In this document: positions 6,341 through 41,444 of the stretch, in pieces
How positions within the stretch are numbered: position 1 is the stretch's first letter
Layout of the letters: every line of letters begins with the position of its first letter
Translations under genes and position numbers: made by a program
Source of the DNA: an uncultured Prevotella sp.
Lineage (GTDB): Bacteria; Bacteroidota; Bacteroidia; Bacteroidales; Bacteroidaceae
NCBI GenBank assembly: GCA_946541195.1
Contig: CAMNJE010000115.1
Coordinates: 2,392 to 66,391, forward strand
Reading direction: 5' to 3'
Length of the DNA stretch: 64,000 bases
The notes under the pieces: generated by a model
Told to the model about the DNA's origin: nothing
Database searches by the model: none
What the model saw: the letters and a program-made list of their open reading frames with translations, nothing else

Positions 6341-7124
6341 AGTAATATTGTCCGCGCTTGCGCGTGATATTGCCATAGTTGATGGCATGGACAGGACAAT
6401 AATGGTAACAGGCCAGACAAGAGGTACACCGTCCGTTGTGCAACCATGAGGGCGGTGTACCTTTGATATTATCCACAGGGCAGACCTTGGCACACTTGCC
6501 ACACTTGATACAGACATCCTCATCCACCATGAATTTCTTGTCCGTAATCATCCGCTTGTTGAAATAGCCGCCGATCACGTATGAATAGAGGCGGGGAGTG
6601 GCTCCTTGTTCCAGTTCGGTGACACCTCGCCTGCGCTCCTTGATAAGTGTGGCGATGCGTGGTACCTGATGACTGGCTATATCAATCTTTCTGGCTTCTT
6701 TCTCTTCAGGGTCAGTCTTCATGAATGGCAGACAGACATACGACTCGGGCATGATCACGGAGAAAAGACTCTCAGCCTGGAGCGGTTTGGAATCGCTAAA
6801 ACCTGTCAGCGTTACCTTTTCCAGTTCTTTGTTCAGAATTGTCATCGCCTCGCCCATGTTATCTCCACAGGTAGTCAATGCCCAACAGTAGATAACCTTT
6901 CCACCTGAGATATGAAGTTTGCGGATAAACTCTCTCACAATCTTTGGCGGTTGCCAGCCATGCGTGGGAAAGCAGAAGCCAATCCGCTCGCCATCGCTCA
7001 GCGTAAAACTGTATTGTCCGTTTCTGATAAGGTCAGGGATATAGAGCAATTGCTCACCAATCTCCCTGGCTATCTGTTCTGCCACCCAACGGGTATTGCC
7101 TGTTCCTGAGAAATAGAATATCAT
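6315..7124 (-). CDS. EFR1-type flavodoxin-ferredoxin fusion (flavodoxin + 2x[4Fe-4S])
   Basis: 269 aa; YFSGTGNT flavodoxin P-loop; CIKCGKCAKVCP and CTSCLACYHYCP. Confidence 0.88.
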   Translation of the reverse strand: MIFYFSGTGNTRWVAEQIAREIGEQLLYIPDLIRNGQYSFTLSDGERIGFCFPTHGWQPPKIVREFIRKLHISGGKVIYCWALTTCGDNMGEAMTILNKELEKVTLTGFSDSKPLQAESLFSVIMPESYVCLPFMKTDPEEKEARKIDIASHQVPRIATLIKERRRGVTELEQGATPRLYSYVIGGYFNKRMITDKKFMVDEDVCIKCGKCAKVCPVDNIKGTPPSWLHNGRCTSCLACYHYCPVHAINYGNITRKRGQYYFNRREDQK

Positions 7125-8590
7125 ATTGTCTTCTGTAGGTATAGTGAATTGGTGATGACTGATGGTAGTTCCTCCTGATAGTGTGTCACAAAGATGAGCG
7201 TCTTGCCTGTTCTCTGGCAGAACGCCTCGATAACATCGTTTACCAGGCGACGGTTCGTGTTGTCGAGGCCATGGAGGGGTTCGTCGAGTATCAGCAGGTC
7301 AGGGTCTTTCACAAAGGCCCTTGCCAGCAGCACCAGCCTCTGTTCTCCACTTGACATTTTCAGGAAGGTCCTGTCAGATAAGTGGCCGATGCCGAAGATG
7401 TCCATCCACCAGCGACAAACCTCGTATTCCGACTCCTTAGGCTTCACATATAGGCCCACGGAGTCCTGCAGTCCGCTGGCGACGATCCGGATGGCAGGGA
7501 TGTCCTGCCGGTAACTGCGATGCATCTCCGGTGACACATAGCCTATGTGGCGCTTAATGTCCCATATACTCTCGCCAGAGCCCCGTTTATGTCCAAAGAG
7601 TGATATGTCGTTGGCATAGGCTTGAGGATTATCCGCACAGACGAGTGAAAGGAGGGTGGATTTTCCGCTACCGTTCTGCCCTGAGAGTGACCATCGTTCA
7701 CCTCGTCTCACCGTCCAGTCGAGATCTTTAAGAATTGTGCGCGCGCCATAGCGGATACACACCTTATTGAAACGGATGACCTCCGAGGACGTGTTGATAG
7801 TATGACTTGGGATGGGCAGCGAAAGAATCGCCTGGCGTTTTGATGCCGGGAGAACATGTTCTGGGAAGGACTCGCGTTGTTTCAGATAGTCATCCAGCGC
7901 TATCTTGGGAAGGACGTGCATGTCTTTCACCTCTACTACATGGGTTATGAAGTGTGGGATATCATCCGATTTCGACAACACCAGGATTATCTGTAGGTGC
8001 TGCTCTTTAGAAAGGGATGTGAGAAGCACTTTCAGTTGGTCGCGTGTGGTGGCATCAAGTCCGATGAATGGGTTCTCCATGATAAGTACACGCGGATTGC
8101 AGAAGAGCGACGAAGCGAGTTTGAACTTACGCAGTTCGCCACTCGACAGCAAGATGATGTATTTGTCGAGCAACGGCTCCAGTTGGAAGAGTTCGTAGAT
8201 ATGCCGTCTGAGTGCCTGACGTGCAGGAGTATCTTCGCCAGCCAACTGGTATGCCTCATCTAACTTACTGCCAACGGTGGGAGTCTCCTCGTCGATTTCC
8301 ATCTGGTTCCAGCGCTGCTGGAGGAAATAAGTGCGGTCGTTGTCGCCGCCGTATGTATCGCGGAAAGTGATGTGGCGTATGTTGTTATAAGGTTCATCGA
8401 AACTGTATCTGACCATGTTAGGAAAAGCAGGATGTTTCCCAGTGATCATATCAACGAACATGGACTTTCCGGCACCGTTCCTGCCGATAATAGCGATATG
8501 TTCGCCTTCATCGAGCACGAAATCCACAGGTTCGCTCATCGACCATTCAGGCTTTTTAGCCTTCGCTCGTTGCAGTTCAATCGTCTTCAT
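7121..8590 (-). CDS. ModF-like ABC ATP-binding protein with two nucleotide-binding domains
   Basis: Likely start ATG 8590 (MKTIELQ); Walker A GRNGAGKS and GQNGSGKS, signatures LSSGELRK and MSSGEQR, second Walker B LLILDEP. Confidence 0.85.
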
Positions 8591-9155
8591 CTTTCTTCTT
8601 GCGTTTGGATATTTTGTCTTGGTTCTTGTTGACGAAGTCTTTCCAGCCGCGATACTTGACTTCACTTTCAGGACGTCCCATCTGTAGATAGTGACAGTAG
8701 GCCGCAGCAAGAGCATCAGTTGCATCCATAAACCTACCCATCTCCTCATCAGGAATCTTCAACAAGCGCTGTAGCATGCCTGCTACCTGCTCCTTTGATG
8801 CTGCTCCGTTTCCCGTCAGTGCCATCTTGATCTTCATGGGGGCGTATTCATGAATGGGCACACCATGATGGATGGCTGCCGCAATAGCAGTTCCTTGTGC
8901 CCGTCCTAACTTTAGCATCGATTGAACGTTTTTGCCGAAGAAAGGAGCCTCGATGGCCATTTCGTCAGGCAGGTATCCGTCGATGATACTTGTTACGCGC
9001 TCAAAGATATGGCCGAGTTTCAGATAGGCATCAGGAAACTTGCGCAGGTCAATGACACCCATAGTTATCATCTGTGCCTTTCCGTCAGCGACTTTCAACA
9101 GGCCGTAGCCCATCAGGTTTGTGCCAGGGTCAATGCCCAGTATGATCTTCTCCAT
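8577..9155 (-). CDS. ruvC: Crossover junction endodeoxyribonuclease RuvC
   Basis: 192 aa; [33 protein letters not shown]. Confidence 0.95.
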
Positions 9156-11655: not shown

Positions 11656-12612
11656 CTATTGGTTGAATTTACCTACTAATGGGGATGGGTTATTGATGAC
11701 TTCTGCCAGTAATCTGGACAATTTTTCTGCCCCAGTGACTGTGAGATGACTGGAATCATTGAAGTCATCGGGAAGGAAGTCGGCTGCAAACATATAGTTA
11801 TAGTACTCTATATTGGGATACTTCTGCTGTAACTTCTTGACAAAATCCTGTATGTCGTTCAGGACAGTCTCGTTGACAGCCTCCTGATAGGTCTTATAGA
11901 CGGGGGTGTTGATGAGAATGAGTCTGACGCCTCGCTGGTTGGTCACATGTGCGATGGACTCATAAATTGTCCACAAATGATTATAGGTGTCTTGGTTGAT
12001 AGGTAGAGACGGGTCAAACTCATCAGCCAGATTCCTATACTCCCATCCTGGTCTTCTCTCTTCAAGATTAAGCCCTACAAAACCAAGGGAGTCGCATTCT
12101 TGAAGGACTTCAGGCCCATTCCAGAATCTGGACATGTAGTTCAGTTTGGAATTGAGAATTTCTGACCAATACCAGAACGGAGCAACATGAAGCCTCATAT
12201 ATTTAGTATGCATACAGTGGCATGTACCTATCAGGCTGACACCATTGTTGGTCTCCTTGGGATTGTGTTTCAGGCGTCCATACATAAAGGTCGAATAATC
12301 CATGTGCATCACCAATACCTTGAGACTATCCATTCTCGGAACGTATTTCTCGGCCAAAGCGGCATCGTATTCGTTAAGGCGGGCTGAGATAGCCAGGTTG
12401 AATGCGCCTGTGCCCAGCAATTCTGGCATAACCCCCTCTTCGACATGGGAACTGCCGAGAAGCAATATCCGAATATCGTTGAGGTGATCCTCCATGTACT
12501 GGTATTTATAGGAATAGATGTTGGGACGATAAAGCAGTCCTATTTCTATAATGCAACACATCAGAAACAGGAGGATGCCAAACTTTGATATGGTGATGAG
12601 AAATTTCTTCAT
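11656..12612 (-). CDS. Membrane-anchored SGNH/DltD-AlgJ-like periplasmic protein
   Basis: 318 aa; N-terminal TM, LLLGSSH (block I Ser), FNDSSHL (DxxH); directly follows an MBOAT gene. Confidence 0.65.
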   Translation of the reverse strand: MKKFLITISKFGILLFLMCCIIEIGLLYRPNIYSYKYQYMEDHLNDIRILLLGSSHVEEGVMPELLGTGAFNLAISARLNEYDAALAEKYVPRMDSLKVLVMHMDYSTFMYGRLKHNPKETNNGVSLIGTCHCMHTKYMRLHVAPFWYWSEILNSKLNYMSRFWNGPEVLQECDSLGFVGLNLEERRPGWEYRNLADEFDPSLPINQDTYNHLWTIYESIAHVTNQRGVRLILINTPVYKTYQEAVNETVLNDIQDFVKKLQQKYPNIEYYNYMFAADFLPDDFNDSSHLTVTGAEKLSRLLAEVINNPSPLVGKFNQ

Positions 12613-12616
12613 AATG

Positions 12617-14083
12617 TCAGAATTGGAAATAGATGAATGCCTGACTCCTGCCAGTAAACGTGATGATCAGCAAGATGATTATCAGATAGGTGACAAAGCG
12701 GACTGGCTGTTTGCGGAATATACGATAATCCTGCAGTTGAAGAGCATGCTCTTCCTTACGTTGGATCCATTCCAAGACCAATAGGAACAAACCAAAGAGG
12801 ATATAGAGTTTGCCATAATTGTCGATGATTGATTCACCCGACAATCCATTGCTTGCGAGATGATATATGAAATTGAATGCCTGACTTATGTTCTCAGCAC
12901 GAAATAGAATCAAGCCTACCGCAACTAATACATAGGTGGTTAGCATCTTCCCAAAGTCCTTTAGGAACGGTAAACCGTGATTGTTGGCTTTCAGTTTCTT
13001 ATTCTTGCCAAAAGCCCCAGAGAGGATGAGGGGGATAAACAGTAAACCGTGATAAAGTCCAAAACATGCAAAGGTCCAGTTCGCCCCATGCCAGAGCCCA
13101 ATCAATAGCAGATTGATCATGGCCGCCATCACGATACCCCATGTACCGATGGTTCTGAACGCAATGTTCAATGGCATGAACACATAGTCCGTGATCCATT
13201 GTGTAAGCGATATATGCCATCGGCGCCAGAACTCTGCCATGTTTCGGGCAATGAAGGGATGGTTGAAATTACGTGTCACCCTGTATCCGAGCAATTTTCC
13301 AACACCTATAGCCATATTGGAATAGCCGTCGAAATCAGCATAGAGTTGGATGGGGTAGAGGAGTGCGGCTATCAGAATCGTTGTGGATGATAACGTGTCA
13401 ACGCCCGACCAGGCGTTGTCTGTGATCAAGGCCAAGTTGTCGGCGAAACACATCTTGGTGAACATTCCCCATAGAATCTGCCGGCATCCGTCTGCCGCCA
13501 GAGCATAATCCAGGCGGTGTACATGGCGCATTTGAGGCAGGAACTTATCAGGGCGATCAATAGGTCCAGAGAGAATGGTGGGAAAGAAAGCAATATAGGC
13601 GGAAAATTCCGTCAAATCCTTGCTGGGCATAATATGTTCCCTATGTATCTCAATAATATAACTGATAAGTTTGAATGTGAAGAAACTGACGCCTACAGGC
13701 AGGATGATATTTAATGTACTCCACGATACCTGAAGGCCGATTGCCTGTAACAAGTCTGCTATGGACTGGGCGAAGAAGTTCAGATATTTGAAGTAAAGCA
13801 GGATCCCAATGCCAAGTATCACACTGAAGGTGGTAATTTGGGAGGCAGCCTTTATCTGTCCATTGTCCATCATCTTGCGAAGCCACAGTCCTATTCCCCA
13901 AAAGACAACGGTGGTGCCTAACAATAGGGGAATCATACGCCAATCGGCTATACCATAGAAGACATAACTGACAAACAGGAGCCAAGTATTCTGAAACTTA
14001 GGTGTCTTCAGCCAAACGGGTAGATAATAGATACAGAAAACAACTAAGAAGAATAGTAAGAAACTATAGGAATTGACAATCAT
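12617..14083 (-). CDS. MBOAT family O-acyltransferase (DltB/AlgI-like)
   Basis: 488 aa, polytopic; GVSFFTF, FFPTILSGPIDR, YADFDGYSNMAIG, EFWRRWHISL, GLWHGAN (catalytic His). Confidence 0.93.
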   Translation of the reverse strand: MIVNSYSFLLFFLVVFCIYYLPVWLKTPKFQNTWLLFVSYVFYGIADWRMIPLLLGTTVVFWGIGLWLRKMMDNGQIKAASQITTFSVILGIGILLYFKYLNFFAQSIADLLQAIGLQVSWSTLNIILPVGVSFFTFKLISYIIEIHREHIMPSKDLTEFSAYIAFFPTILSGPIDRPDKFLPQMRHVHRLDYALAADGCRQILWGMFTKMCFADNLALITDNAWSGVDTLSSTTILIAALLYPIQLYADFDGYSNMAIGVGKLLGYRVTRNFNHPFIARNMAEFWRRWHISLTQWITDYVFMPLNIAFRTIGTWGIVMAAMINLLLIGLWHGANWTFACFGLYHGLLFIPLILSGAFGKNKKLKANNHGLPFLKDFGKMLTTYVLVAVGLILFRAENISQAFNFIYHLASNGLSGESIIDNYGKLYILFGLFLLVLEWIQRKEEHALQLQDYRIFRKQPVRFVTYLIIILLIITFTGRSQAFIYFQF

Positions 14084-14087
14084 CCGT

Positions 14088-14330
14088 CTATCTTAGTTTT
14101 TCTTCCATAGAATTGACCATTTCTCCCACATTTCTCCATTTCATAATTTCCAGGGAGGTAAATTTGATGCCAAAAGACTTCTCGATGGCGACAATCAGTT
14201 GAATATGGCTTAGAGAGTCCCATTCCTCTATGTCATTGGCACTGGTCTCTTCTGTCAGATCCACATCATCAAGATCAAGCACATCGATAAAAATCTCATT
14301 TAATCTTTTAAAAATTTCTTGTCTTTCCAT
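14088..14330 (-). CDS. Acyl carrier protein
   Basis: 80 aa, acidic; EEWDSLSHIQL phosphopantetheine Ser motif. Confidence 0.9.
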   Translation of the reverse strand: MERQEIFKRLNEIFIDVLDLDDVDLTEETSANDIEEWDSLSHIQLIVAIEKSFGIKFTSLEIMKWRNVGEMVNSMEEKLR

Positions 14331-14353
14331 ATTTCTTTCAAATTATTGTTCTT

Positions 14354-15073
14354 TCAAATCATGTGTTGTGCAGCGTTAATGGGTATCTCCACTCCATTCA
14401 GTTGCTGACTGGCATTCATGAGCATGACAACAACCTGTGCCACTTCATCCGGCTCCAATAGTCTTTTGAGTGGATGGGCATTCTTCATCTGCTCTATCTG
14501 GAAATCTTCCACTTTACTGAAGTTTGTCTGCATATAATCTGGTAAAATGCAGTTTGAACTAATGTTAAAGCGACCACACTCCTTGCTGATGCTTTTGGAA
14601 ATCTGCAGGAGATAGGCTTTTGTGGCCGTATAGACAGAAAACCCTGTTGGGGGAACATCCATGATATAAGAGGTGATGATATTGATAATCTTGCCAAATT
14701 TGCGCTTTCTCATACCTGAGATGCATGCCTGTGTTATTTTAATAAAAGGTATGACGTTCCATTCAAAGGCCTTAGAGAAGTCTGCCACATCAGTCTTGTA
14801 AAAATGAGTGCCCTGCGGGTTGCCTGAATAGGCATTGTTGATAAGCACGTCAACTTGTATGTCTGATAGCATTTTGACAAAATAATCCACACTCTCCGCA
14901 CGGCAGAAGTCAACTGCCACAGCCTGGACATTGGCAAATCTACCAGCAAGTGCCATAGCCTCGTCCTCATGACGATGATAGGTAAAAACGACATGATTGT
15001 CTCTTGAAGCGGCACATTCTTCAACAAGTGCTTTGCCTAATCCAGAAGATCCTCCAGTAATGATAATATTCAT
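14354..15073 (-). CDS. SDR family oxidoreductase (FabG/ketoreductase-like)
   Basis: 239 aa; TGGSSGLG, LINNA, YTATK (YxxxK). Confidence 0.9.
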   Translation of the reverse strand: MNIIITGGSSGLGKALVEECAASRDNHVVFTYHRHEDEAMALAGRFANVQAVAVDFCRAESVDYFVKMLSDIQVDVLINNAYSGNPQGTHFYKTDVADFSKAFEWNVIPFIKITQACISGMRKRKFGKIINIITSYIMDVPPTGFSVYTATKAYLLQISKSISKECGRFNISSNCILPDYMQTNFSKVEDFQIEQMKNAHPLKRLLEPDEVAQVVVMLMNASQQLNGVEIPINAAQHMI

Positions 15074-15088
15074 TGTATTCTCGTCTGT

Positions 15089-15505
15089 TTATAATAACCC
15101 AACCTGAACATGGCCTTTTGCCACCAGTTGTCTGTCAGATTCTTGGACTTTGTAAAATTTCATCTTATAGGCCACCACGTTAACAGCCTCCGACACAGTA
15201 TCAATGCTTGATTCGAGCAGGATTTCGTCATTGAGGAAAACGGGCTTGTGGAAACTAATGTCCTGAGACTGTATCATGACTTCTCTGGAAGGCAGTAGCA
15301 TACCAACGAAATGGGAGATGAATGCGTTGAGGATATTGCCATACATCACTGGCGCGATGAATCCCTTCTGCTTAGCAAAAGCAGCATCAGTATGCAGGGG
15401 GTTATAGTCCCTGCTGCAACGCTGGAAACTATCATATACATCTGGTGTGACATGATAATGATAGGTTATATGAGCAGATTGTTCAGCAAATTCTTTTATC
15501 GTCAT
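15089..15505 (-). CDS. MaoC family (hot-dog fold) dehydratase
   Basis: 138 aa; DYNPLHTD hydratase-2 motif, FHKPVFLND. Confidence 0.85.
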   Translation of the reverse strand: MTIKEFAEQSAHITYHYHVTPDVYDSFQRCSRDYNPLHTDAAFAKQKGFIAPVMYGNILNAFISHFVGMLLPSREVMIQSQDISFHKPVFLNDEILLESSIDTVSEAVNVVAYKMKFYKVQESDRQLVAKGHVQVGLL

Positions 15506-17244
15506 GGTTTTCTTGATTCAATATAACATGTTCTGGGTTGATAGGACTCTACATCAAGCACATACTGTGAGGTGGAAGAACCTTTCAATGGTACAAAACC
15601 AAGTTGTGGGTAGTGTTGTTCCACCATCTTGTTTTTCGGTGTAGGGAGATATTCTCCGATGATGCGTTTGTAGCCAGCAGCCTTAGCATGTTCCACCATG
15701 GTGTTAAGGGTAAAGTTTTCCATGCCCCGTTTCAATACGCGGCAACTCATGAACCAAGTATCAACGAAGAGGGTCTGGGCATCCTGTTCCTTCATGATGA
15801 TGACGGCTATCAGACCGTTGTCACCAAATTTGTCACTTAGGGTAAAACTGAGGTCGATTGTTTTGGAATCATTAGCAAGAGCCTCAATGTCTGCCTCTGT
15901 ATAGCGAATGGTACGTAAGTTGAACTGGTTACTACGTTGGGAGAGTTGAGCAACACGAGGGGTATTGAACTTTGTAAATCCACTGACGACGGATACCATA
16001 TTGAGTGACTTCAGAAAGTCGTCCTCATTAGTGTATGTCTTGGAGAGAGACACACGCTTTGCCTCAACCTGATATTGCTTGGTACGGTCTTTGTCTGCCA
16101 TACTGTATGAAGCGGTCTCAAAAAGATTAAGACTATAAAGGTATTCCAGGTATTCTCCCGGATCCTCAGGTAATTCTGGGACCATTATGTCTGGAATATT
16201 ATCCCGCACAATATTCCGCTCGAAAGGATTGTCATCCAGAAAGACCATAGAGTCGAATCCGATATTTAGGATACTCTGAATAGTACGGATATTGTCAACC
16301 TTTGTTTCCCAGTTCGCTTGGAAGACTGCAATGTCATCAAGTCTCAATATCATGTCTGGATGCTTTTCAAAAGGCTCCTTGGCTGTTTCTTCGTTATTCT
16401 TGGAAGCCACGCAGATGATAATGCCACGCTGCCTAAGTTTTCTCACCCACATCTGAAATTCTGTGAATGCCTTCCCGATGCCTAATCCATGGCCTAATTG
16501 GATGCCTTCAAGACCATCGTCACCAATCACACCGCCCCATATCGTATTGTCCAAGTCAAGGATGAGGCACTTCTTGAACTTTCCCTTGACGGCACAAATG
16601 ATATCCATTACACGCGAAGCCACATAGGGGAGAGCATCCATAGACAAGATCATCTCCGTACTGACATAGACATTCGGCGCAAACATGAAGTCTCTACCTA
16701 ACTTGTTCTGCAGGGCCGCTATATCACAAATAAAGAGGTTCGGGTACTGCTGGGCAAGATTCATCAGTTCGTAATTCAGTTTACGTAACTGATATGTAAA
16801 AGATGAGCGGACTTTGTTGCTGTAACTGCCAAATACAGTATCTTCAATCTCTGGGTAGTTGAAATAGATGATTTTCTTGTTAGAGAGCGCAGGGTTATCA
16901 CAGATGGATAAAACGAATCGCAGACGTTCGTCAGCCAGATCATTCTGTTGCTCCTGACTTAGTGAACTGTGCAACTCACCTAATTTATGGGTGCTTTGGA
17001 ATACTACGATAAAGTCGGCATCGAACTGATACAACTCACTTGTGGGATCGAGAAACTGTCGTTCTACCTGATTGAACTCTGCTTCAAAGAGGTTGATATT
17101 ATAGTCTCTTGTTACACCAGTCCCTCGGATTGCAATTGCCAGAAACTGGGTAGCAGTATCGCCAAGTAAAGCAACTTTACAGGGTTGTAAACCATCTGGA
17201 ATATGCTTTTGCAACTTCTTGAGTACTTGGAACGGTTGTATCAT
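15502..17244 (-). CDS. FkbH-like HAD-IIIC glyceryl transferase/phosphatase
   Basis: 580 aa; KCLILDLDNTIWGGVIGDDG, SKNN, FLDDNPFER, QRSNQFNL, FMSCRVLKRG (acyl-accepting Cys). Confidence 0.92.
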   Translation of the reverse strand: MIQPFQVLKKLQKHIPDGLQPCKVALLGDTATQFLAIAIRGTGVTRDYNINLFEAEFNQVERQFLDPTSELYQFDADFIVVFQSTHKLGELHSSLSQEQQNDLADERLRFVLSICDNPALSNKKIIYFNYPEIEDTVFGSYSNKVRSSFTYQLRKLNYELMNLAQQYPNLFICDIAALQNKLGRDFMFAPNVYVSTEMILSMDALPYVASRVMDIICAVKGKFKKCLILDLDNTIWGGVIGDDGLEGIQLGHGLGIGKAFTEFQMWVRKLRQRGIIICVASKNNEETAKEPFEKHPDMILRLDDIAVFQANWETKVDNIRTIQSILNIGFDSMVFLDDNPFERNIVRDNIPDIMVPELPEDPGEYLEYLYSLNLFETASYSMADKDRTKQYQVEAKRVSLSKTYTNEDDFLKSLNMVSVVSGFTKFNTPRVAQLSQRSNQFNLRTIRYTEADIEALANDSKTIDLSFTLSDKFGDNGLIAVIIMKEQDAQTLFVDTWFMSCRVLKRGMENFTLNTMVEHAKAAGYKRIIGEYLPTPKNKMVEQHYPQLGFVPLKGSSTSQYVLDVESYQPRTCYIESRKP

Positions 17245-17246: not shown

Positions 17247-17948
17247 CTATTTATTTTCGAAATAATTCTCAAGTTCCATCTTAGCACTTCCACCTTCATT
17301 GGACAAGTCTTTGATGATCTGTCCTTTCTCAAGGAGGGCAATGCGAGTGGAAATGTCTATTGTATGAGTCAGATTATGACTGGATATGAGGATGGTGGCT
17401 CCTGTCTGCTGACGATACGCTGTCAACTCGTGTTTCAAAACATTCTGGCTGGAAGGGTCGAGGAAGTTGAAGGGCTCGTCAAGGATGACTAACTTCGGGT
17501 GGTTGAAGAGGGCAGAGATAATGCCAACCTTCTGTTTGTTCCCCGCAGAGAGGTTCCTGATCAGTTTCTTCTGGCCGAAGATCTCTCCTGCTGCCAGTCG
17601 TTCAAAATCCTTGAGTCTTGTTTCAACAGCCTCTTGTGACATGTTAGTGATCTTGCCGATAAAGGCAAAATACTCCTCTGGAGTCAGGAAATCTATAAGA
17701 AAGCCCTCATCTATAAATGCTCCAGTCTGGCTCTTCCATTCTTCAGACATAGCGGGGTTAATCCCGTCGAGGGTTATTTGCCCTTCATCGGGCTTCAACA
17801 GGTCAAGGAGCATGCGGAACAAAGTCGTCTTGCCTGCTCCATTATTGCCCACTAGCCCAAGGATATCCCCATCATTAATTGTAAACGAGGGGATATCGCA
17901 GGCTACTGTCTCACCAAATGATTTCTTTAGATTGTCTATGATAATCAT
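17247..17948 (-). CDS. ABC transporter ATP-binding protein (no adjacent permease)
   Basis: 233 aa; GNNGAGKT, LSAGNKQK, VILDEP, SSH. Confidence 0.9.
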   Translation of the reverse strand: MIIIDNLKKSFGETVACDIPSFTINDGDILGLVGNNGAGKTTLFRMLLDLLKPDEGQITLDGINPAMSEEWKSQTGAFIDEGFLIDFLTPEEYFAFIGKITNMSQEAVETRLKDFERLAAGEIFGQKKLIRNLSAGNKQKVGIISALFNHPKLVILDEPFNFLDPSSQNVLKHELTAYRQQTGATILISSHNLTHTIDISTRIALLEKGQIIKDLSNEGGSAKMELENYFENK

Positions 17949-21469: not shown

Positions 21470-22999
21470 CTAGAACAATGGTTCTGCGGTGCAGGCGTTA
21501 GGAGCCCGGATGTGGATAGTCTTTGCAATAGTCGGGGCTATCCTGTCAGTGGTGACTGGCAGTTGTACACGGGTTGCTGGAATGTCTGCACCATAGATGA
21601 TGATAGGGAAGAGTGGGGCAGATGCCTCTGACAATCTGTCATAATTGGTGTCTTCGTTTTGCAGATGCCATCCAGGAGCCACTTCAATCAGTATGTCGCC
21701 ATTGCGCTGGTAGTTGAAACTGTTGCGTAACTTGAGTAGTTGCCCGTTGCTGCCGTTAAGTAGTTGCAGACTGGAATAGACATTCTTGACGCCAGTCATT
21801 TGCGAGATAAACTCCTGAGCCCGCTGAGAGGCGTCAGTCAGACTGATGCGTTTTGACTCCAGCAGTTTGTGATTAAGGAATAACTGGTTGTCATAGCAGG
21901 CCTCCACATACCGTCCTTGTCCCCAAAGGGCACCAAAATACATGTTCAACAGGTTGGCCGTACGATTGACATAAAAGATGCCTGTGGGAATACGGTATCT
22001 TGCATAATCGATGCCTTCTGGGTCACTGTATCCAGTACTGGTGATGACGAAAAGCACTTCTTCTTTTCCAACCCTGCTTTCCAGTCTGGATACGAGGTTC
22101 CCCAGTTCTTTATCCAGACGGATATATGTATCTTCTATTTCTTTCTGACATTCTGTCACAGGCTTGTGGTCGAAGGGCCCTGCATAGTAGGTCAGGCACA
22201 ATAGGTCGGTCGTATCATTCGCGCCCATTTCCTGATAGTTTACGCACGAAAGCGCCAATTCGGTAATGTCAGCATTTATCAATCCTGATGTCTGATATTC
22301 CAGATGTCGCCTATTCCCTTTGAAGACATGCTTGAAGTCTGGCTTCTGATGGATGATTTGTGGCTGCCATTCTGTTTTTTCTTTTTTTCTTTTTGTGTTG
22401 CTTAACTCATTGAAAGACAGAATCCATTGTGGCGTGTTGCTCGAGTGATACTGAGATGATGTCCATTGGCCATTCTTCTCGTTCAGCCAGAAGGCCCCGT
22501 CGGCAGCGTGACCAGCAGCCAGGATAGCCATATCCTCAAAGGGCGCAATGGCAAAAATTTTCGCAGTACCTTGGGAACTGACCTTCATTTCGTCGCCCAG
22601 GGTGGATACCGCCAGTTGGGATGGCGTTGGAACTCCAGGATGTGAGGGGTCTTCCGTACAGTTTATTGGTCTCAGACTATTTCTGTCGAGCCATTGCTCC
22701 CCAATAATACTATGATAGGATGGGGTAGTGCCACTGATGATGGTCGATATGGCAGAGGCTTTGTCTGGGCTGACGAAGGGATAGGCGGCGTTTTCATATA
22801 CCAGTCCTTGTGTCAGTAGTTTCCTAAAACCATTGGTGCCATAATAGGGTGCAAAGTTCTCCAGATAGTCGCTGCGTAACTGGTCGATAGTGATGGCTAC
22901 AACCAGCCGCGGCACTTGTCGGGTTCCGTATTGGGCCTGTGCTTCAACATGCCAGCCAAGCACAGCCAGAAGGGTTATCGAGAGATAATGGTTCCTCAC
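21470..22999 (-). CDS. Alkaline phosphatase (PafA)-family protein, metal ligands apparently lost
   Basis: Likely GTG start 22999 (GTGA overlap), signal peptide, PRLVVAITIDQLRSDYL, GFRKLLTQG, AGHAADGAFW; see findings for the missing residues. Confidence 0.8.
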   Translation of the reverse strand: MRNHYLSITLLAVLGWHVEAQAQYGTRQVPRLVVAITIDQLRSDYLENFAPYYGTNGFRKLLTQGLVYENAAYPFVSPDKASAISTIISGTTPSYHSIIGEQWLDRNSLRPINCTEDPSHPGVPTPSQLAVSTLGDEMKVSSQGTAKIFAIAPFEDMAILAAGHAADGAFWLNEKNGQWTSSQYHSSNTPQWILSFNELSNTKRKKEKTEWQPQIIHQKPDFKHVFKGNRRHLEYQTSGLINADITELALSCVNYQEMGANDTTDLLCLTYYAGPFDHKPVTECQKEIEDTYIRLDKELGNLVSRLESRVGKEEVLFVITSTGYSDPEGIDYARYRIPTGIFYVNRTANLLNMYFGALWGQGRYVEACYDNQLFLNHKLLESKRISLTDASQRAQEFISQMTGVKNVYSSLQLLNGSNGQLLKLRNSFNYQRNGDILIEVAPGWHLQNEDTNYDRLSEASAPLFPIIIYGADIPATRVQLPVTTDRIAPTIAKTIHIRAPNACTAEPLF

Positions 23000-24234
23000 A
23001 CCTTGACTTTTAAGTGAATCATTGCCCTTGACAGCAAAGATAATGCCACAATTATCATCCCTTCTGCGTATTGCTGGAAAATTCCTCCAAGTAGGAATAG
23101 GGCTGTCATCACGATGAGGTTTTTCCACCAGTGGGTAGGCCGTCTCCTAAGTATGGATGGTATAAAGAAGAGGGAAACGGGATTCAGCAGTAGTATCTGG
23201 AGGTTTGTACTGGTCGTCGGGTGCTGGGAGAAGAGCATGATGAAGAGTACACAGCCCGCCAGTCCCTGCAATAGCATAAGCAAAGCGTCCCAGTATTTGA
23301 GGGTTTTCCCGCGTCGCCATTCCCAAACGACAATAATGAGGCAAATAGCCATCAATATCCATGCACATTCTATGGGTGTCAGGGGAAAGTCCTGTTCAAT
23401 GATCTGTACCCCAGGAGGAACCAGAATCCTGCGTTCTTTGACAAGTGGCCGATACTGGCCGTCTGCGTAGATCTGAGCCCTGTCGAAGTCGTACATGAGG
23501 TTGCCCGGCAGGAATTCCTGCTCTCTTAGGCTGGTCTTCATGTCTGCTCTGACACCAAGTAGGATGTCATTGCCAAAAGCAGCCCAAGGATGATTCCTGG
23601 TACATTGGTGGACCATTTCTCTATAGGAAGGCGTATATTCCTCACGCTGAGCATATTCCACTTTCCCGCTAATGCATTTCTCGATGATGTCGCGAGGTCG
23701 TGTAGAACAGTTATCGTAGAAATAATTGTAGCGATAGACCTTATTCTCTGGTCGCAGATTCTCGACGAGGATCTCCTTAAGTCTTATCTTCTCAGCGTTT
23801 GTCAGATTGATGACCTGCTCGACGACAGAACTGCCATATTCTTTGTAATATGGCCAGAAATAGTTATATGGATACGCACCTAATTCGTAGTCCGTCAGGC
23901 CAAAGACAAAGCGAGGTATAAAATAGGGCTTTCTGAAGTCGAATACGCCCCAGTTGAAAACGAAGTCTTCAGTGACCGCCCCCGGGCCTTGTTGGCGCAG
24001 GTTATGCCATCGGATGGCGGAATGGCCATATAGACTGTAGATTTCCTCGTGGGGTGAGCATGTCAGCAGACTCACCTCAATGGAGTCCATCAGGTTATCG
24101 ACTGACTCAAATGTGCTGTTGTCAGCATCAACGGGAACAGCGCCAGATTGCGCGTTTATGGGCGTTATACCACTGATTATCAGGAGTATAAACCATAAAG
24201 AAAGTCTCTGAAAATCTTTTTCTAAATGTTTCAC
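22996..24234 (-). CDS. DUF4105 membrane protein, Lnb-like lipoprotein N-acyltransferase
   Basis: Start uncertain (GTG 24234 gives a signal-like N-terminus); SLLTCSP, YGHSAIR, YRYNYFYDNCSTR (His/Cys pair), four C-terminal TMs. Confidence 0.75.
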   Translation of the reverse strand: MKHLEKDFQRLSLWFILLIISGITPINAQSGAVPVDADNSTFESVDNLMDSIEVSLLTCSPHEEIYSLYGHSAIRWHNLRQQGPGAVTEDFVFNWGVFDFRKPYFIPRFVFGLTDYELGAYPYNYFWPYYKEYGSSVVEQVINLTNAEKIRLKEILVENLRPENKVYRYNYFYDNCSTRPRDIIEKCISGKVEYAQREEYTPSYREMVHQCTRNHPWAAFGNDILLGVRADMKTSLREQEFLPGNLMYDFDRAQIYADGQYRPLVKERRILVPPGVQIIEQDFPLTPIECAWILMAICLIIVVWEWRRGKTLKYWDALLMLLQGLAGCVLFIMLFSQHPTTSTNLQILLLNPVSLFFIPSILRRRPTHWWKNLIVMTALFLLGGIFQQYAEGMIIVALSLLSRAMIHLKVKV

Positions 24235-24238
24235 GATG

Positions 24239-24299
24239 CAAAAATAACTTATATTTTTGAGGAAAAGGCTATTATTTCCATTTTTTTTCAATAATTTTG
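24239..24299. promoter_or_regulatory. Back-to-back -7 promoter boxes
   Basis: Minus TATTTTTG (24246-24239) and plus TAATTTTG (24292-24299) in a short AT-rich divergent intergenic region. Confidence 0.55.
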
Positions 24300-30653: not shown

Positions 30654-33128
30654 ATGAAAGAATCAGACATGAATAAAGAATTGGAGAAAGGACCTGTTGG
30701 GAAAGAAGAGGGCACGCTCGTGTTCCGAGAACTCTGCGATTACTATGTAAGTAACTGGAAATGGTTCTTGGCATCAGTGGTTGCTTTCCTGCTTGCGGCT
30801 TGTATCTATCTGTGGTTCACGCCCACGAAGGTCAATGTGACAGGCAAGTTGCGTATTATGGACAAGTCGAAGCAGAGCGGTCAACTGTCGATGGGCATGT
30901 CCATGCTGAACTCCCTCCCTATGGGCCTTGGCAGTAGTCTTGGTGGCGGTCTTGGGGCAGTCCTTGGGGGCGGCATCGAGTCCGAACAAGAGATTCTCCT
31001 GTCTAATAATCTCTCCAAGGAAGTCGTCAGCGAACTGGGACTTTACACCGAGTATCGCCAGAAGAAGTGGGGTAGGAAGAACTTGTTATACCAGAACCAG
31101 CCCGTGAGCGTGATAGTCGCGCCAGAACTGCTGAAGACGCTTGAAGCCAAACTCCCCTTGAAGAATCTGCAGATCAGGCTCCTTATAACCAAAAGTGGAG
31201 ACAGTTATACAGTGGAAACAGTTGTGAAGGAGAACAAGGAGAAGACGGAACTGCCTGAGGAGACCTTCTCGCACCTTCCTGCGACGATTGAAACAGGTCT
31301 TGGTCCTATCGTGCTGAGCGAGAATACGCAACTGACGGAGCAGGACCGTGAGTCATACCAAGACGGTTACACCCTGCAGGTTACCATTATTCCCCCTTCG
31401 GAGAGAGCGGCAGATTTCCTTGAACATTTGACGGCGGAGCCCTCCTTGAGCAAGGCTCCGGATATCATTGGACTGACGTTGGAAGACGAGAGTGTGGTGA
31501 GAGGGGTCGATTTCGTGAACACCCTGGTGGAACTCTACAACAAGTACATCAATGAAGAGAAGAACGAGGAGGCGCTGAAGACAGACGAGTTCGTCAATAA
31601 GCGCCTGGCGAACCTGGATGTCGAACTGGGCCATTCAGATGAGGCTTGGGAGAAATCGAAGAAGAGTTTCCAAGTAACTGAACCTTCCGTCGATGCCCAA
31701 GAGATTATGACCAAAAGGGGCCAGTATGAAGCCCAGTTGGTCAGTTTCGGAACACAGATTCAGTTGCAGGACTACCTAAATGAATATGTCAACGATCCCA
31801 CGAACCTGTTTGAACTTATCCCTGTGAATGTCGGAGTCTATGGAGGTGATGCCCTGCCGATGATCAGTCAGCATAATACACTGATCACCCAGCGTCGCGA
31901 ACTGTTGAAGAGTGTCAGTGAGCAGTCGCCTGTCGTAAAGAAGATCAACCTATCCATTCAGGAACTCCATCCCAATATCCAGACAGCCATGAAGCGCGAC
32001 CGCCAGTCGCTGTTGATTAAGCGTCAGGCTGTGGAGCGTGAATATGATAGGTACAACGGCCGTGTTACGAATACTCCGCAGGCTGAGCGCGTCCTGACGG
32101 AGATCGGTCGTCAGCGTGAGATCAAGCAGGGCGTCTATCTGCTGATGCTCCAGCAGCGCGAGGAGACTGCCATGCAACTGGCCAATATCACGGACAAGGG
32201 AAAACTCATCGATGCCGTCAGGGCCGTCAGATACAGCAATCACCCCAAGAAAAAGGTCGTACTGCTTGGGGCACTCCTTCTGGGTCTTCTCTTCCCCATG
32301 CCATTCCTGTTCATGTCAGCAACAAGATCCAGACAGATATTTAAGAGTGCCTCTGTGATGGTTTTGGCGCTTTTCATGTTTTCTGCCTGTATGAGCACAA
32401 AGAATGTTCCTTATTTCACCAATATGGACGAGATCTCCACAAGTGATTCCAAAGTGCAATATGAAGCAAGGATCATGCCAAAGGATATTCTTCAGATTAA
32501 GGTTTTCTCGACGACTCCAGGAATGGTTGATGCCTTCAATCTGGAAAAGACCCCTGTCTCTTCATCGTCAACGACTGACCATGTCACCCCCAATTCTGTA
32601 TATAACTATATTGTCGATAGTGATGGTGACATTATCTACCCAGTCATTGGAAGCATTCATGTGGGTGGCTTGACGCGAAAAGAGGCAGAGACCCTGATAA
32701 AATCCAAGGTTGCACCTTATATGTCGCCAACAGAGGATTACCTGGTTCATGTCCGTATGATCAACTACAAGTATTCTGTTCTTGGTGAGGTCAGGTCTCC
32801 TGGAACATTTCATACTCAGAATGAGAAGGTCAATATCATCGAGGCTATAGCCCAGGCAGGTGATATGACTCTTTATGGATTGCGAGACAGGGTTTTCCTG
32901 ATTCGTGAGAACAGTGACGGACAGAAAGAATTTCATCGTCTGAACCTAAACGACGCGAACATCGTCAGTTCACCGTATTACTATTTGCAACAGAATGACA
33001 TCATCTATGTAGAGCCCAACAAGGCACAAGCCAGAAGTTCATTCTTCTCGACGACAAGTTCAATCTGGCTATCCATCACGAGTGCTCTGGTCTCATTAAG
33101 TACTTTGATTATTGCCATAACCAAATAG
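30654..33128 (+). CDS. Fused polysaccharide co-polymerase (Wzc-like, no kinase domain) and OPX/Wza export lipoprotein
   Basis: 824 aa single frame: TM1 + coiled-coil periplasmic region + TM2 (res 1-553), then MSATRSRQIFKSASVMVLALFMFSA-C(579), Poly_export/SLBB motifs (YIVDSDGDIIYPVIGSIHVGGLT, VLGEVRSPG, IEAIAQAGD, YYYLQQNDIIYVEPN) and a hydrophobic C-terminal helix. Confidence 0.85.
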   Translation: MKESDMNKELEKGPVGKEEGTLVFRELCDYYVSNWKWFLASVVAFLLAACIYLWFTPTKVNVTGKLRIMDKSKQSGQLSMGMSMLNSLPMGLGSSLGGGLGAVLGGGIESEQEILLSNNLSKEVVSELGLYTEYRQKKWGRKNLLYQNQPVSVIVAPELLKTLEAKLPLKNLQIRLLITKSGDSYTVETVVKENKEKTELPEETFSHLPATIETGLGPIVLSENTQLTEQDRESYQDGYTLQVTIIPPSERAADFLEHLTAEPSLSKAPDIIGLTLEDESVVRGVDFVNTLVELYNKYINEEKNEEALKTDEFVNKRLANLDVELGHSDEAWEKSKKSFQVTEPSVDAQEIMTKRGQYEAQLVSFGTQIQLQDYLNEYVNDPTNLFELIPVNVGVYGGDALPMISQHNTLITQRRELLKSVSEQSPVVKKINLSIQELHPNIQTAMKRDRQSLLIKRQAVEREYDRYNGRVTNTPQAERVLTEIGRQREIKQGVYLLMLQQREETAMQLANITDKGKLIDAVRAVRYSNHPKKKVVLLGALLLGLLFPMPFLFMSATRSRQIFKSASVMVLALFMFSACMSTKNVPYFTNMDEISTSDSKVQYEARIMPKDILQIKVFSTTPGMVDAFNLEKTPVSSSSTTDHVTPNSVYNYIVDSDGDIIYPVIGSIHVGGLTRKEAETLIKSKVAPYMSPTEDYLVHVRMINYKYSVLGEVRSPGTFHTQNEKVNIIEAIAQAGDMTLYGLRDRVFLIRENSDGQKEFHRLNLNDANIVSSPYYYLQQNDIIYVEPNKAQARSSFFSTTSSIWLSITSALVSLSTLIIAITK

Positions 33129-33157
33129 GGTGATATAAGTATCAATGGTTAGAAACA

Positions 33158-34750
33158 ATGAAGAGTAAGTGGTTTTTATTTTTAGTTTTTATATCCATCG
33201 GCCTGGCATCGGGATGTTCTGGTAGCGATGTGGTTGAGGAACCAGTTCCTGCTCCTTCAGAGCCCAAGGCCAATGGCAAGGATACGACTTCTGATAGTGT
33301 CGAAAACATAAGTCCTTCATTGCTGAGTGTTATCTTCAGATGTGAAGACAATGCTTATCAGTTGAGTGAAGATATAGCCTGTGAGATACTTGATGACAGC
33401 GTTGTAGTATGTAGGATTCCCAATGTCGTAGAAAACAAACAGTTGAAGCCGGCGATTAGATTTGTTGGCGAAAAGTTGTTGATAGACGGTGTCGCCTATC
33501 AGGCGGGGGACCAATATGATTTTCGGAAGCCAGTTAAACTCTCAGTCATAGCAGGACACGAAACGAGGACATATACGGTGTATGTCCATTCCTTCACGGG
33601 TCTTCCTGTGATGTGGATAGAGACAGTAGGTCGGCAGGACATCACGTCGAAAGAAGAGTATCTGAAAGCCAGTTTCAGGTTAGAGGAAGGAGTTGTTTCC
33701 AGGGGTGCAGGTGATGTGATATGTGATAGTATCCAGATAAAAGGACGTGGAAACACGACATGGAGCCTGTTTGACAAGAAGCCCTATCGCCTGAAGTTCG
33801 GCAAGAAGGTCTCTCTCTTAGACATGCCAGCAGATAAAGCCTGGGTGTTATTAGCAAATCCTGCCGATAAGTCGATGCTCCGTAATATGATCAGTTTCTA
33901 TTTGGGTCAACTCAGTAATCTGGATTGGACGCCAAGGGCACACTTTGTGGAACTCATGCTGAATGGGAGATACAATGGGACTTATCTTCTGACAGAAAAG
34001 ATCAAGATTTCAGAGCACAGGGTGAATATTGGTGATAACGGCATCCTGATGGAGTTGGATGCGTATGCGCATAATGAGGCAGATTCACGCTATTTCAATA
34101 CGAATCATTTCAAGCATGAGATAAACATCAAGGCTCCGCATGTTGAATATGGGGATGAGATTTTTAACAAGGCTAAAAACTTGATGTTGACTGCTGAAGA
34201 AGTGTTGTTCTCTGACGATTTCACTGACCCTTTGGTGGGATGGAGGAAGTATCTGGATGAAACCTCGTTTATAGACTGGTATCTGGTCAATGAAATCGTT
34301 AAGAATACAGATGTTGTGGATTGGTCTTCCACCTATTTCAATTGTCAGGCTGGAGGGAAACTCAAGATGGGCCCACTCTGGGATTTTGATCTCACATTTG
34401 GGAATTGTGAGGAAAAATTTGAATCACGGATATCAACACCTGAAGGCTTTTCTGCCATGCATAATCCTTGGATTTCTCAACTTTTCAAGGATTCCTCGTT
34501 TGTAAAGAACGTTAAGGCACGGTACGAGTACTTTTATAGTCAGAAAGAGAGAATCTTCATGGAAATCAATGAGAATAGTCAGTATCTAAAATATGCCGTT
34601 GTAGAAAACGATAACCGCTGGCATACCTTATATGCAAGTGCATGGAGAAATCCAATTATCTGGGGCAGTTACGATAATGAGGTGCAGTTCTTGAAGCAAT
34701 GGCTCAATACCCGTATGGAATGGCTCAAACGGGAATATGAAAACATGTAA
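33158..34750 (+). CDS. CotH kinase family lipoprotein
   Basis: 530 aa; lipobox ASGC, IKGRGNTTW, KKPYRLKF, WVLLAN, FVELMLNGRYNGTYLLTEKI, MGPLWDFDLTFGN. Confidence 0.88.
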   Translation: MKSKWFLFLVFISIGLASGCSGSDVVEEPVPAPSEPKANGKDTTSDSVENISPSLLSVIFRCEDNAYQLSEDIACEILDDSVVVCRIPNVVENKQLKPAIRFVGEKLLIDGVAYQAGDQYDFRKPVKLSVIAGHETRTYTVYVHSFTGLPVMWIETVGRQDITSKEEYLKASFRLEEGVVSRGAGDVICDSIQIKGRGNTTWSLFDKKPYRLKFGKKVSLLDMPADKAWVLLANPADKSMLRNMISFYLGQLSNLDWTPRAHFVELMLNGRYNGTYLLTEKIKISEHRVNIGDNGILMELDAYAHNEADSRYFNTNHFKHEINIKAPHVEYGDEIFNKAKNLMLTAEEVLFSDDFTDPLVGWRKYLDETSFIDWYLVNEIVKNTDVVDWSSTYFNCQAGGKLKMGPLWDFDLTFGNCEEKFESRISTPEGFSAMHNPWISQLFKDSSFVKNVKARYEYFYSQKERIFMEINENSQYLKYAVVENDNRWHTLYASAWRNPIIWGSYDNEVQFLKQWLNTRMEWLKREYENM

Positions 34751-34754
34751 CTTA

Positions 34755-35543
34755 ATGAGTGATTATATTAGTTATCTGGATATACCAAGACAATGGGGGC
34801 TGAAAAGTGGTGACGTCGTCATACTCTCTTCCTATCTCACGAGAGTGGTGATGGATACAAAGAGAAATGGCGAACATTTTGATATGAATCTTTTCCTGGA
34901 ATCAGTACTTGACGTGATAGGAGAAGAAGGTACCTTGCTTATCCCTACATTTAATTGGGACTTCTGCCATGGTGAGACATTCGATTACTATAAGACAAAA
35001 AGTCAGACAGGTGTTTTAGGAGATAAGGCGTTGATGCATCCTAAATTCAGGCGGACTCAACATGCCTTATATTCTTTTGCCGTAGCAGGCAAGGATCAGG
35101 CAATGCTTTGTGGCCTGACAAATCAATCGTCGTTTGGTGCCGACTCACCATTTGCATATTTGGAGAGGTGCCATGCAAAACAAGTCATGATTGATGTTCC
35201 GGAAAATCATATATGGGGTTTCACATACGTTCATTTTGTCGAGGAGAAATATAGGGAGTTCATCCCATACAGGTATATGAAGGAGTTCAGAGGCACTTAT
35301 ATAGATGAAAGTTTGCGGGAATCTATTAGGACATACACCATGTTGGTTAGAAACTTGGATATGGATGTCAGAGTAGAATTGGATCCTTTGGCAGAAGCGT
35401 TTACGAGAGAAGGTGTCCTGACATCGTACCGAATAAACAATGAATATTATACCGTTGTTGATTTGTATAGTTCAACAAGAATAGTTGCAGAAGACATCCT
35501 AACTAATAAAAGTAGATTGTTTACACGTTATAATGGACAGTGA
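34755..35543 (+). CDS. AAC(3)/YokD-family N-acyltransferase
   Basis: Start ATG 34755 (or 34737); GTLLIPTFNWDF, SQTGVL, RRTQHALYSFAVAG, SSFGADSPF, TYVHFVEE. Confidence 0.8.
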   Translation: MSDYISYLDIPRQWGLKSGDVVILSSYLTRVVMDTKRNGEHFDMNLFLESVLDVIGEEGTLLIPTFNWDFCHGETFDYYKTKSQTGVLGDKALMHPKFRRTQHALYSFAVAGKDQAMLCGLTNQSSFGADSPFAYLERCHAKQVMIDVPENHIWGFTYVHFVEEKYREFIPYRYMKEFRGTYIDESLRESIRTYTMLVRNLDMDVRVELDPLAEAFTREGVLTSYRINNEYYTVVDLYSSTRIVAEDILTNKSRLFTRYNGQ

Positions 35544-35549
35544 GTAATA

Positions 35550-35846
35550 ATGGATAAGAAAAGAATTAATGAGATAGTCATCAGTACTTTGAAGGACTAT
35601 TGTGAAGCAAACGGGATTAATGTCGAACTGACAAAAGATACCTCTTTGATAGGTAGTGCAAGAATTCTCGACTCAATGGGATTGGTGAACACTATCGTGG
35701 ATATTGAAACGGCCTTTCTTGATGAGGGCGTTGATATTTCTCTGACCTCTGAGGCTGCCATGTCTGGACGCATCAGCCCCTTCCGTTCAGTCGGATCCCT
35801 TTGTAACTTTATCGCTCGTCAACTTGGTATTGACGAAAAGGAATAG
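35550..35846 (+). CDS. Acyl/peptidyl carrier protein
   Basis: 98 aa; ILDSMGLVNTIVDIE Ser motif, PFRSVGSL. Confidence 0.8.
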   Translation: MDKKRINEIVISTLKDYCEANGINVELTKDTSLIGSARILDSMGLVNTIVDIETAFLDEGVDISLTSEAAMSGRISPFRSVGSLCNFIARQLGIDEKE

Positions 35847-35861
35847 ATTAGGCAGACCTTT

Positions 35862-38082: not shown

Positions 38083-38083
38083 C

Positions 38084-39421: not shown

Positions 39422-39423
39422 GA

Positions 39424-41439: not shown

Positions 41440-41444
41440 AGAAA

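Follow-up and report, generated by a model that had tools for sequence, protein, structure and literature searches.

An FkbH-ACP-MBOAT-SGNH gene cassette in Prevotella, probably for carrier-protein-fed acylation of the cell envelope

Why should a gene for an FkbH-type loader stand in one row with genes for a dehydratase, a reductase, a carrier protein, a trans-membrane acyltransferase and an SGNH-fold partner? The question is raised by positions 11656-17244 of a 64,000-nucleotide (nt) stretch of DNA from an uncultured Prevotella sp. (assembly GCA_946541195.1, contig CAMNJE010000115.1); by "the window" we mean the whole of that stretch. We suggest that the six genes probably encode a self-contained envelope acylation system, in which a carrier protein feeds a membrane-bound O-acyltransferase (MBOAT), together with its SGNH partner, with a glycerate-derived α-hydroxyacyl group, most likely lactyl in the window, for transfer as an ester. 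The proposal is built on direct observations of gene content, folds, catalytic residues, a shuttle motif, conserved linkage and modular variation among related loci. A preliminary description of this DNA had arrived at a similar interpretation, which is supported in every part that can be tested computationally; its six co-oriented open reading frames (ORFs) are all found at the positions and with the spacing it reported, on the minus strand, with gaps of -4, 15, 23, 4 and 4 nt in the order from FkbH to the partner:

15502..17244, minus strand: FkbH-type loader, 580 aa, with FkbH_N, a HAD-IIIC phosphatase domain and a C-terminal transferase region
15089..15505, minus strand: MaoC-type single hot-dog dehydratase, 138 aa
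14354..15073, minus strand: classical short-chain dehydrogenase/reductase (SDR), 239 aa
14088..14330, minus strand: dedicated acyl carrier protein (ACP), 80 aa, PP-binding
12617..14083, minus strand: MBOAT trans-membrane acyltransferase, 488 aa, PF03062
12620..12637, minus strand: codons of the MBOAT C-terminal hexapeptide FIYFQF (F483-I-Y485-F-Q-F488), an FXYXXF acyl-shuttle motif
11656..12612, minus strand: membrane-anchored periplasmic SGNH-fold transferase, 318 aa, assigned from an AlphaFold model and Foldseek

In the pathway that we propose, FkbH would use its HAD aspartates and Cys501 to move a glyceryl group from 1,3-bisphosphoglycerate to the phosphopantetheine on Ser39 of the ACP. MaoC would then remove the 3-hydroxyl of glyceryl-ACP to give 2-hydroxyacryloyl-ACP and its tautomer pyruvoyl-ACP, and lactyl-ACP would arise when the SDR acts on the pyruvoyl (or enol) thioester as a reductase. 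The MBOAT, through His332, would move the acyl group from its thioester with the ACP in the cytoplasm to Tyr485 of the MBOAT's own FIYFQF on the periplasmic side; there the SGNH partner would accept it on Ser55 and use it to esterify a hydroxyl of an acceptor outside the cytoplasm. This acceptor would most likely be a glycan, be it lipopolysaccharide (LPS), capsule or exopolysaccharide (EPS), protein O-glycan or peptidoglycan. The alanyl group moved by DltB and a lactyl group are isosteric.

Enzymes of the FkbH/OzmB type transfer glycerate from 1,3-bisphosphoglycerate to an ACP, and the FkbH protein of the window matches PF21211 (FkbH_N, Pfam) with an E value of 2e-90 and TIGR01686 (NCBIfam) with 302 bits, above the curated cut-off of 147. 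Its residues 4-382 resemble PDB entry 3SLR (E 4e-176), a structural-genomics entry for the "uncharacterized protein BF1531" of B. fragilis; a full-text literature search found no mention of BF1531. We scanned one genome per species and found at least 80 loci with an FkbH 66-85% identical to the query; the ORFs of these loci were called and clustered, the cluster representatives were annotated, and residue conservation was counted among homologues from 81 related loci. Both D230-L-D232-N-T234 and S500-C501-R502 are kept in 81 of 81 FkbH homologues, and we take C501 to be the catalytic, glyceryl-carrying cysteine, by analogy with OzmB and FkbH. With the curated threshold exceeded and the HAD aspartates and conserved cysteine intact, the protein belongs to the FkbH type, as it had been called; the catalytic motifs that had been listed for the other products were likewise each located in the window proteins and are conserved across homologues.

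The ACP carries a PP-binding domain (PF00550, E 1e-8) with D38-S39-L40, in which S39, the site of phosphopantetheine attachment, is present in 64 of 64 sequences. In NCBIfam its AcpP-like matches lie under cut-off and the DltC model gives no match. For MaoC the family match (PF01575, E 6e-13) comes with the hydratase-2 motif D33-Y-N-P-L-H38, invariant in 20 of 20 homologues. The SDR matches adh_short and adh_short_C2 (E 1e-29) and has T6-G-x3-G-x-G along with Y148 and K152 (17 of 17); its top NCBIfam matches are FabG-type 3-oxoacyl-ACP reductases, every one of them under cut-off, and a ketoreductase of the polyketide synthase (PKS) type is not indicated (PF08659, only 16.8 bits vs a cut-off of 22.6). 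As the preliminary description had stated, there is no ketosynthase, and the flanks of the cassette have none either: neither this nor any other domain of PKSs or nonribosomal peptide synthetases was identified in the window cassette or in the annotated neighbour families of related loci, and on this ground we rejected a reading of the cassette as a natural-product pathway.

Chemically, β-elimination from a 2,3-dihydroxyacyl thioester can only lead to an enol or α-keto product, and reduction of either the keto or the enoyl form gives lactyl. In the loading module for FR901464, a dehydratase (DH) and a ketoreductase (KR) acting on glyceryl-ACP reportedly yield lactyl-ACP, as shown by reconstitution.

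The export half of the cassette begins with the MBOAT, whose gene starts 4 nt behind that of the ACP. It has the motif G329-L-W-H332-G, and H290 and H332 are found in 73 of 73 homologues. A sequence search of the PDB returns DltB (6bug, E 1e-34), and DltB proteins are its sole solved relatives; DltB is also the best fold match of the AlphaFold model (E 4e-9). Against the DltB model TIGR04091 the protein scores 190 bits, under the cut-off of 375. It exceeds DltB in length by about 70 aa, and its model adds two C-terminal helices, at 422-440 and 459-476, after which the chain ends in ...SQAFIYFQF, an FXYXXF motif. The FxYxxF motif forms the C-terminal end in 73 of 73 MBOATs of related loci, 61 of which have FIYFQF itself, and Y485 is present in all 73. 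An acyl-tyrosine shuttle formed by such a motif has been demonstrated experimentally for PatA and DltX: PatA auto-acetylates the tyrosine of its C-terminal FXYXXF, which then serves PatB as the source of the acetyl group, and in the Dlt pathway the FXYXXF motif resides on the microprotein DltX (Anderson et al. 2025, PMC12148441). Judged by its sequence, the window protein is thus a longer MBOAT of PatA/AlgI type with a fused shuttle, and not one half of a DltB + DltX pair.

Since the MBOAT ends in FIYFQF, the cassette would combine a Dlt-like carrier donor with a PatA-like fused shuttle. A separate DltX-like microprotein was considered and rejected, as the gaps of 4-23 nt are too small for one and the opposite-strand ORFs over the ACP gene (c25, c52) are calling artefacts; its absence is explained by the fusion of the shuttle motif to the MBOAT. 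The Dlt/AlgIJ-like architecture that had been put forward for the cassette is supported, with a refinement: an ACP, a DltB-nearest MBOAT and an SGNH partner are there, while DltA and DltX are not, and a fused shuttle is found instead.

The last gene had been described as SGNH-like, and this is borne out by structure. The window protein has no Pfam match (some members of its cluster match PF07611/DUF1574), and a sequence search against the PDB found nothing. Its AlphaFold model, with a predicted local distance difference test score (pLDDT) of 94.5, shows a helix at the N-terminus (2-27) and then an α/β domain, and Foldseek assigns the protein to the SGNH fold, with GDSL esterases, PatB (7tlv) and DltD (6pfx, 3bma) among its structural neighbours at E values of about 1e-5. 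The SGNH blocks I, III and V are recognised as G-[S/N]-S55-H, N72 and D286-x-x-H289; in the window protein block I reads G53-S-S55, and G53, N72 and H289 are kept in 51 of 51 homologues and S55 in 50 of 51. Taken together, the fused shuttle and the SGNH partner make the export half PatA/PatB-type in architecture, although it is encoded directly behind an ACP.

Right after the membrane anchor, the partner has a tyrosine-rich stretch, N31-x-Y33-x-Y35-K36-x-x-Y39 (codons within 12496-12522, minus strand), with Y33 and Y39 unchanged throughout the 51 sequences. We speculate that this stretch, residues 31-39, may dock the shuttle peptide of the MBOAT.

Do the six genes belong together? Close spacing alone is uninformative here, because the neighbouring SecA, ABC ATPase, FeoB and RuvC genes are equally dense and on the same strand (gaps of 12 nt for SecA, 2 nt for the ABC ATPase and 41 nt for FeoB). 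We turned to those related loci, 64 in number, that have 5 kb or more of sequence downstream of FkbH. A cognate ACP lies within 6 kb downstream in 61 of these and an MBOAT is present in 55, in many unrelated contexts, so that the linkage is far beyond chance. In about 60 loci the first MBOAT has the ACP gene directly upstream of it, and the MBOAT is almost always followed by a same-strand partner of 300-350 aa. Besides the window's own family, these partners fall into the families c29 (hhalign probability 97%) and c21, for which hhalign gives only 54% and which has GDS and DxxH motifs and a weak AlgX match. The genes that flank the cassette do not travel with it. A survey of this kind had been named in the preliminary description as a check, and with complete six-gene sets at several loci it confirms that the cassette recurs; it belongs to a large family of modular cassettes and is no isolated case.

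One objection would be that six chance neighbours in a dense housekeeping operon share no joint function. The density of the flanking genes and a promoter and terminator scan that found nothing above shuffled controls at the cassette boundaries (its sigma-70 rules being unsuited to Bacteroidota) would allow it, but the recurrence as a unit in unrelated contexts effectively refutes it, and a G+C content of 0.37-0.45 in the cassette genes, below the 0.49-0.51 of SecA and FeoB, also speaks against it.

The family varies in a way that bears on the acyl group. Between FkbH and ACP, 23 loci have no tailoring gene, 24 have a VOC protein, 10-11 have MaoC and SDR, and 6 have MaoC and a split transketolase with or without SDR. 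MaoC never occurs alone at the related loci; it is always followed by SDR or the split transketolase, neither of which occurs without MaoC, and VOC and MaoC are mutually exclusive. These rules fit an α-keto (pyruvoyl-ACP) intermediate, since a reductase and a thiamine pyrophosphate (TPP) enzyme both act on α-keto groups. At the site between SecA-ABC and FeoB that is occupied in the window, all six genes are found at eight related loci (L001-3, L011, L012, L018-20), and three other Prevotella loci with the identical SecA...FeoB site (L007, L016 and L053) have FkbH, ACP, MBOAT and partner with no trace of MaoC or SDR. These last are predicted to be natural "glyceroyl" versions, to be set beside the "lactyl" one of the window. 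Within the MBOAT clade of the window, tailoring sets and partner families are intermixed.

Two of the alternative tailoring sets deserve a description of their own. The VOC/Glyoxalase_4 protein that replaces MaoC and SDR has 130-141 aa and was noted at 31 loci in all (for example at L077:11981-12382, and at L005 and L024); its best curated match is methylmalonyl-CoA epimerase, with 53 bits and under cut-off, and we regard it as a candidate 2-epimerase of glyceryl-ACP. The split transketolase, found after MaoC at L027-L029, L038, L045 and L065, consists of an N-terminal TPP subunit of about 277 aa and a pyrimidine/C-terminal subunit of about 321 aa, and this implies that the presumed pyruvoyl-ACP is built up into a larger acyl group in a TPP-dependent way.

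The alternative that we take most seriously accepts the export machinery as proposed and changes only its cargo, to pyruvoyl, unmodified glyceroyl or another C3 derivative, with MaoC and SDR doing something else. In its favour, MaoC and SDR stay under every curated equivalog cut-off, the top matches of the SDR are β-ketoacyl and not α-keto reductases, and a transketolase in the place of SDR at related loci means that the MaoC product has other fates. Yet MaoC and SDR lie between FkbH and ACP and are present or absent as a pair, and elimination followed by reduction would lead to lactyl either way, for which the PKS loading modules provide a precedent. We thus consider a cargo other than lactyl unlikely.

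A second alternative concerns the acceptor, which might be a lipid or a protein (lipid A or core, a lipoprotein, or the head group of a membrane lipid) and not a glycan polymer. In its favour, the neighbours of the window cassette are housekeeping genes and no glycosyltransferase (GT) adjoins it, genes for an Lnb-like lipoprotein N-acyltransferase and for a phosphodiesterase are found at a distance of a few kb in conserved synteny, and the partner belongs to an uncharacterised family, with no Pfam match except for DUF1574 in some members. Against this, most paralogous cassettes, outside the setting seen in the window, form part of polysaccharide loci, with GT1/GT2, Wzx, GLF and AT3 genes around them, and the characterised bacterial MBOAT-SGNH pairs all acylate a glycan or teichoic-acid polymer (PMC12148441). 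On balance we find a lipid or protein acceptor rather improbable.

The order SecA-ABC-FkbH-MaoC-SDR-ACP-MBOAT-partner-FeoB-RuvC is also found on a 217-kb metagenomic contig and in isolates that include Prevotella aff. ruminicola Tc2-24 and Prevotella sp. khp7 (loci L002 and L020), and the nearest homologues of FkbH, MBOAT and partner, at 82-90% identity, are from rumen and gut Prevotella. An ABC-transporter ATPase (17247-17948, minus strand, 233 aa) stops 2 nt ahead of FkbH, with no adjacent permease gene. We rejected it as a seventh component: it accompanies the cassette only in the SecA block and is missing from cassettes elsewhere, and as it is tied to SecA synteny and not to the cassette it is probably outside the system.

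According to a third alternative, the MBOAT and its partner are an ordinary acetyl-CoA-dependent O-acetyltransferase of the PatAB/AlgIJ kind, and FkbH, MaoC, SDR and ACP serve a separate cytoplasmic pathway nearby. The length of the MBOAT and its fused shuttle motif, both of PatA/AlgI type, would suit this, as would the existence of FkbH-ACP modules that lack an MBOAT; these adjoin DegT aminotransferases and candidate cytoplasmic acyltransferases (Antibiotic_NAT-like, AT3, hexapeptide), a setting that hints at N-acylation as a parallel route. However, the ACP gene abuts the first MBOAT from upstream in the roughly 60 loci mentioned, in many contexts. The best solved relative of the MBOAT by sequence is the carrier-protein-dependent DltB. 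Moreover, no second acyltransferase was found in the cassette among the window ORFs with Pfam, and the cassette offers no other enzyme able to use an acyl-ACP. An acetyl-CoA donor is in our view very unlikely.

Several points nonetheless weigh against a lactyl-transferring, glycan-modifying cassette. MaoC and SDR are stand-alone proteins of fatty-acid type, and their domain families differ from the DH and KR of lactyl-starter PKSs. The AlphaFold model of the MBOAT is of moderate confidence only (pLDDT 71). The window cassette lies between housekeeping genes with no adjoining glycosyltransferase, so its context is silent on the acceptor. Three metatranscriptome assemblies match the region at 100% identity, with contigs that span SecA to ACP and FeoB to MBOAT; this is consistent with transcription of the cassette, but the depth is flat and carry-over of DNA is possible. 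We know of no report of a lactyl or glyceroyl ester on a Prevotella envelope polymer, and what we say of substrates, intermediates and acceptor, and of the identity and stereochemistry of the acyl group, is inference.

How, then, does the proposed carrier-fed system relate to those already known? With PatA/PatB and AlgI/AlgJ/AlgX it shares an MBOAT of about 480 aa with an invariant His, the fused FXYXXF motif, an adjacent anchored SGNH partner with Ser, His and Asp, and the lack of a DltX. These systems use acetyl-CoA and no carrier protein, whereas the window cassette has an ACP, an FkbH loader and tailoring enzymes, and their acyl group is acetyl, where that of the window is presumably lactyl or glyceroyl. 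With Dlt, it shares a carrier-protein thioester as the likely donor for the MBOAT, DltB as nearest relative, an N-terminally anchored SGNH end transferase and a small C3 acyl group. In contrast to Dlt, there is no DltA (no AMP-binding protein is encoded in the cassette), and loading from a glycolytic intermediate falls to FkbH; DltX is absent, the MBOAT is under the DltB equivalog cut-off, the carrier is AcpP-like and not DltC, and the host is here a Gram-negative member of the Bacteroidales, without teichoic acid. Strictly, the cassette belongs to neither PatAB/AlgIJ nor Dlt, though it would work like both. A carrier protein is absent from MBOAT/SGNH pathways other than Dlt (PMC12148441).

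On the donor side, the closest parallels are FkbH/OzmB and the FkbH-DH-KR modules of trans-AT PKSs (bryostatin BryA, FR901464), where FkbH loads an ACP, dehydration and reduction follow, and lactyl-ACP is proposed or shown. In the window, the enzymes are free-standing, with a MaoC hot-dog and a classical SDR in the place of PKS domains, and the acyl-ACP would go to a membrane acyltransferase. In the flagellin glycosylation island of Campylobacter jejuni, the FkbH-domain gene cj1302 occurs with acyl carrier proteins (PMC7099621). This is an FkbH-type gene in a glycan-modification locus, analogous to the MBOAT-less FkbH-ACP loci described here; it differs in that a nonulosonic acid is presumably acylated in the cytoplasm, with no MBOAT-SGNH export step. 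In accordance with the preliminary description, which knew of no characterised example in Bacteroidota, a full-text literature search found no FkbH- or ACP-fed MBOAT-SGNH envelope system described for this phylum, and FkbH and MBOAT were named together in the searched literature only for cyanobacterial aeruginosin clusters.

MBOAT-SGNH pairs are a general bacterial machinery for the acylation of envelope polymers, and they come in two classes, acetyl-CoA-fed (PatAB, AlgIJ, Wss) and carrier-fed (Dlt only). If our proposal is true, the cassette unites both classes and widens their chemistry from acetyl and D-alanyl to a glycerate-derived hydroxyacyl group, and its MBOAT would be the first of the kind with a fused tyrosine shuttle for which an acyl-ACP is shown to be the donor. 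Cassettes of this type are widespread, occurring in many Prevotella and other Bacteroidales that are dominant in rumen and gut. The surface glycans of Bacteroidales influence how sensitive these bacteria are to phages, how they are recognised by the immune system and how they resist enzymes that degrade glycans; the predicted lactate or glycerate esters would be base-labile, so that routine work-ups of glycans would remove and overlook them. Strains with and without MaoC and SDR at one and the same locus amount to a natural experiment, and cultured carriers exist for genetics.

Two or three tandem MBOAT-partner pairs stand behind one FkbH-ACP at L004, L028, L029 and L039, which suggests that a single acyl donor serves several acceptor positions or polymers. 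With more reserve than for the window cassette itself, we offer the tentative but quite possible view that the Bacteroidales have a widespread and so far unrecognised family of carrier-fed MBOAT-SGNH systems on a common FkbH-ACP platform, in which swapped tailoring enzymes, acting on a C3 acyl group from glycolysis, and one to three transferase pairs would produce a combinatorial "acyl code" on surface glycans, made up of glyceroyl, lactyl and more elaborate α-hydroxyacyl esters.

Some related loci come from genomes labelled otherwise. Contigs of metagenome-assembled genomes (MAGs) that carry Firmicutes names (Coprococcus, Oscillibacter, Lachnospiraceae and others; L054, L055, L056, L067, L072, L076 and L078) encode an FkbH 70-82% identical to that of Prevotella, and are probably mis-binned Bacteroidales. 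A related FkbH is also encoded on two Treponema MAG contigs (L069 and L070, one of them 164 kb long), which may reflect a real horizontal transfer.

Elsewhere in the window, a capsule/EPS locus of low G+C (30654-48594, plus strand, 0.36-0.43) encodes Poly_export/SLBB, CotH kinase-like, GT2, Capsule_synth and EpsG proteins. At a distance of 13 kb and on the opposite strand, this locus (30.6-48.6 kb) has no demonstrable link to the cassette. It contains a second carrier-protein module, with an Antibiotic_NAT-like acyltransferase (34737-35543), AMP-binding enzymes (35862-37391 and 38084-39421), an SDR (37384-38082) and a 98-aa carrier-like ORF (35550-35846) that has an LDSMG motif and no family match; this module looks like a cytoplasmic acyl-carrier-dependent route for N-acylation of a sugar.

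The Lnb-type gene (Lnb_N/5TMH_Lnb; lipoprotein N-acyltransferase-like) and the Phosphodiest-family gene lie upstream of SecA in conserved synteny (22996-24291 and 21470-23128, both minus strand). The same pair is found at L001:2985-5708, and as the longest ORFs in the window overlap, their starts need revision. A similar case is seen on the other side of the cassette, where the longest ORF of an ABC-F-like gene with a double ABC_tran domain (7121-8749, minus strand) overlaps RuvC (8577-9155, minus strand) by about 170 nt; its L001 homologue has 487 aa, so that translation probably starts further downstream than at the listed ATG.

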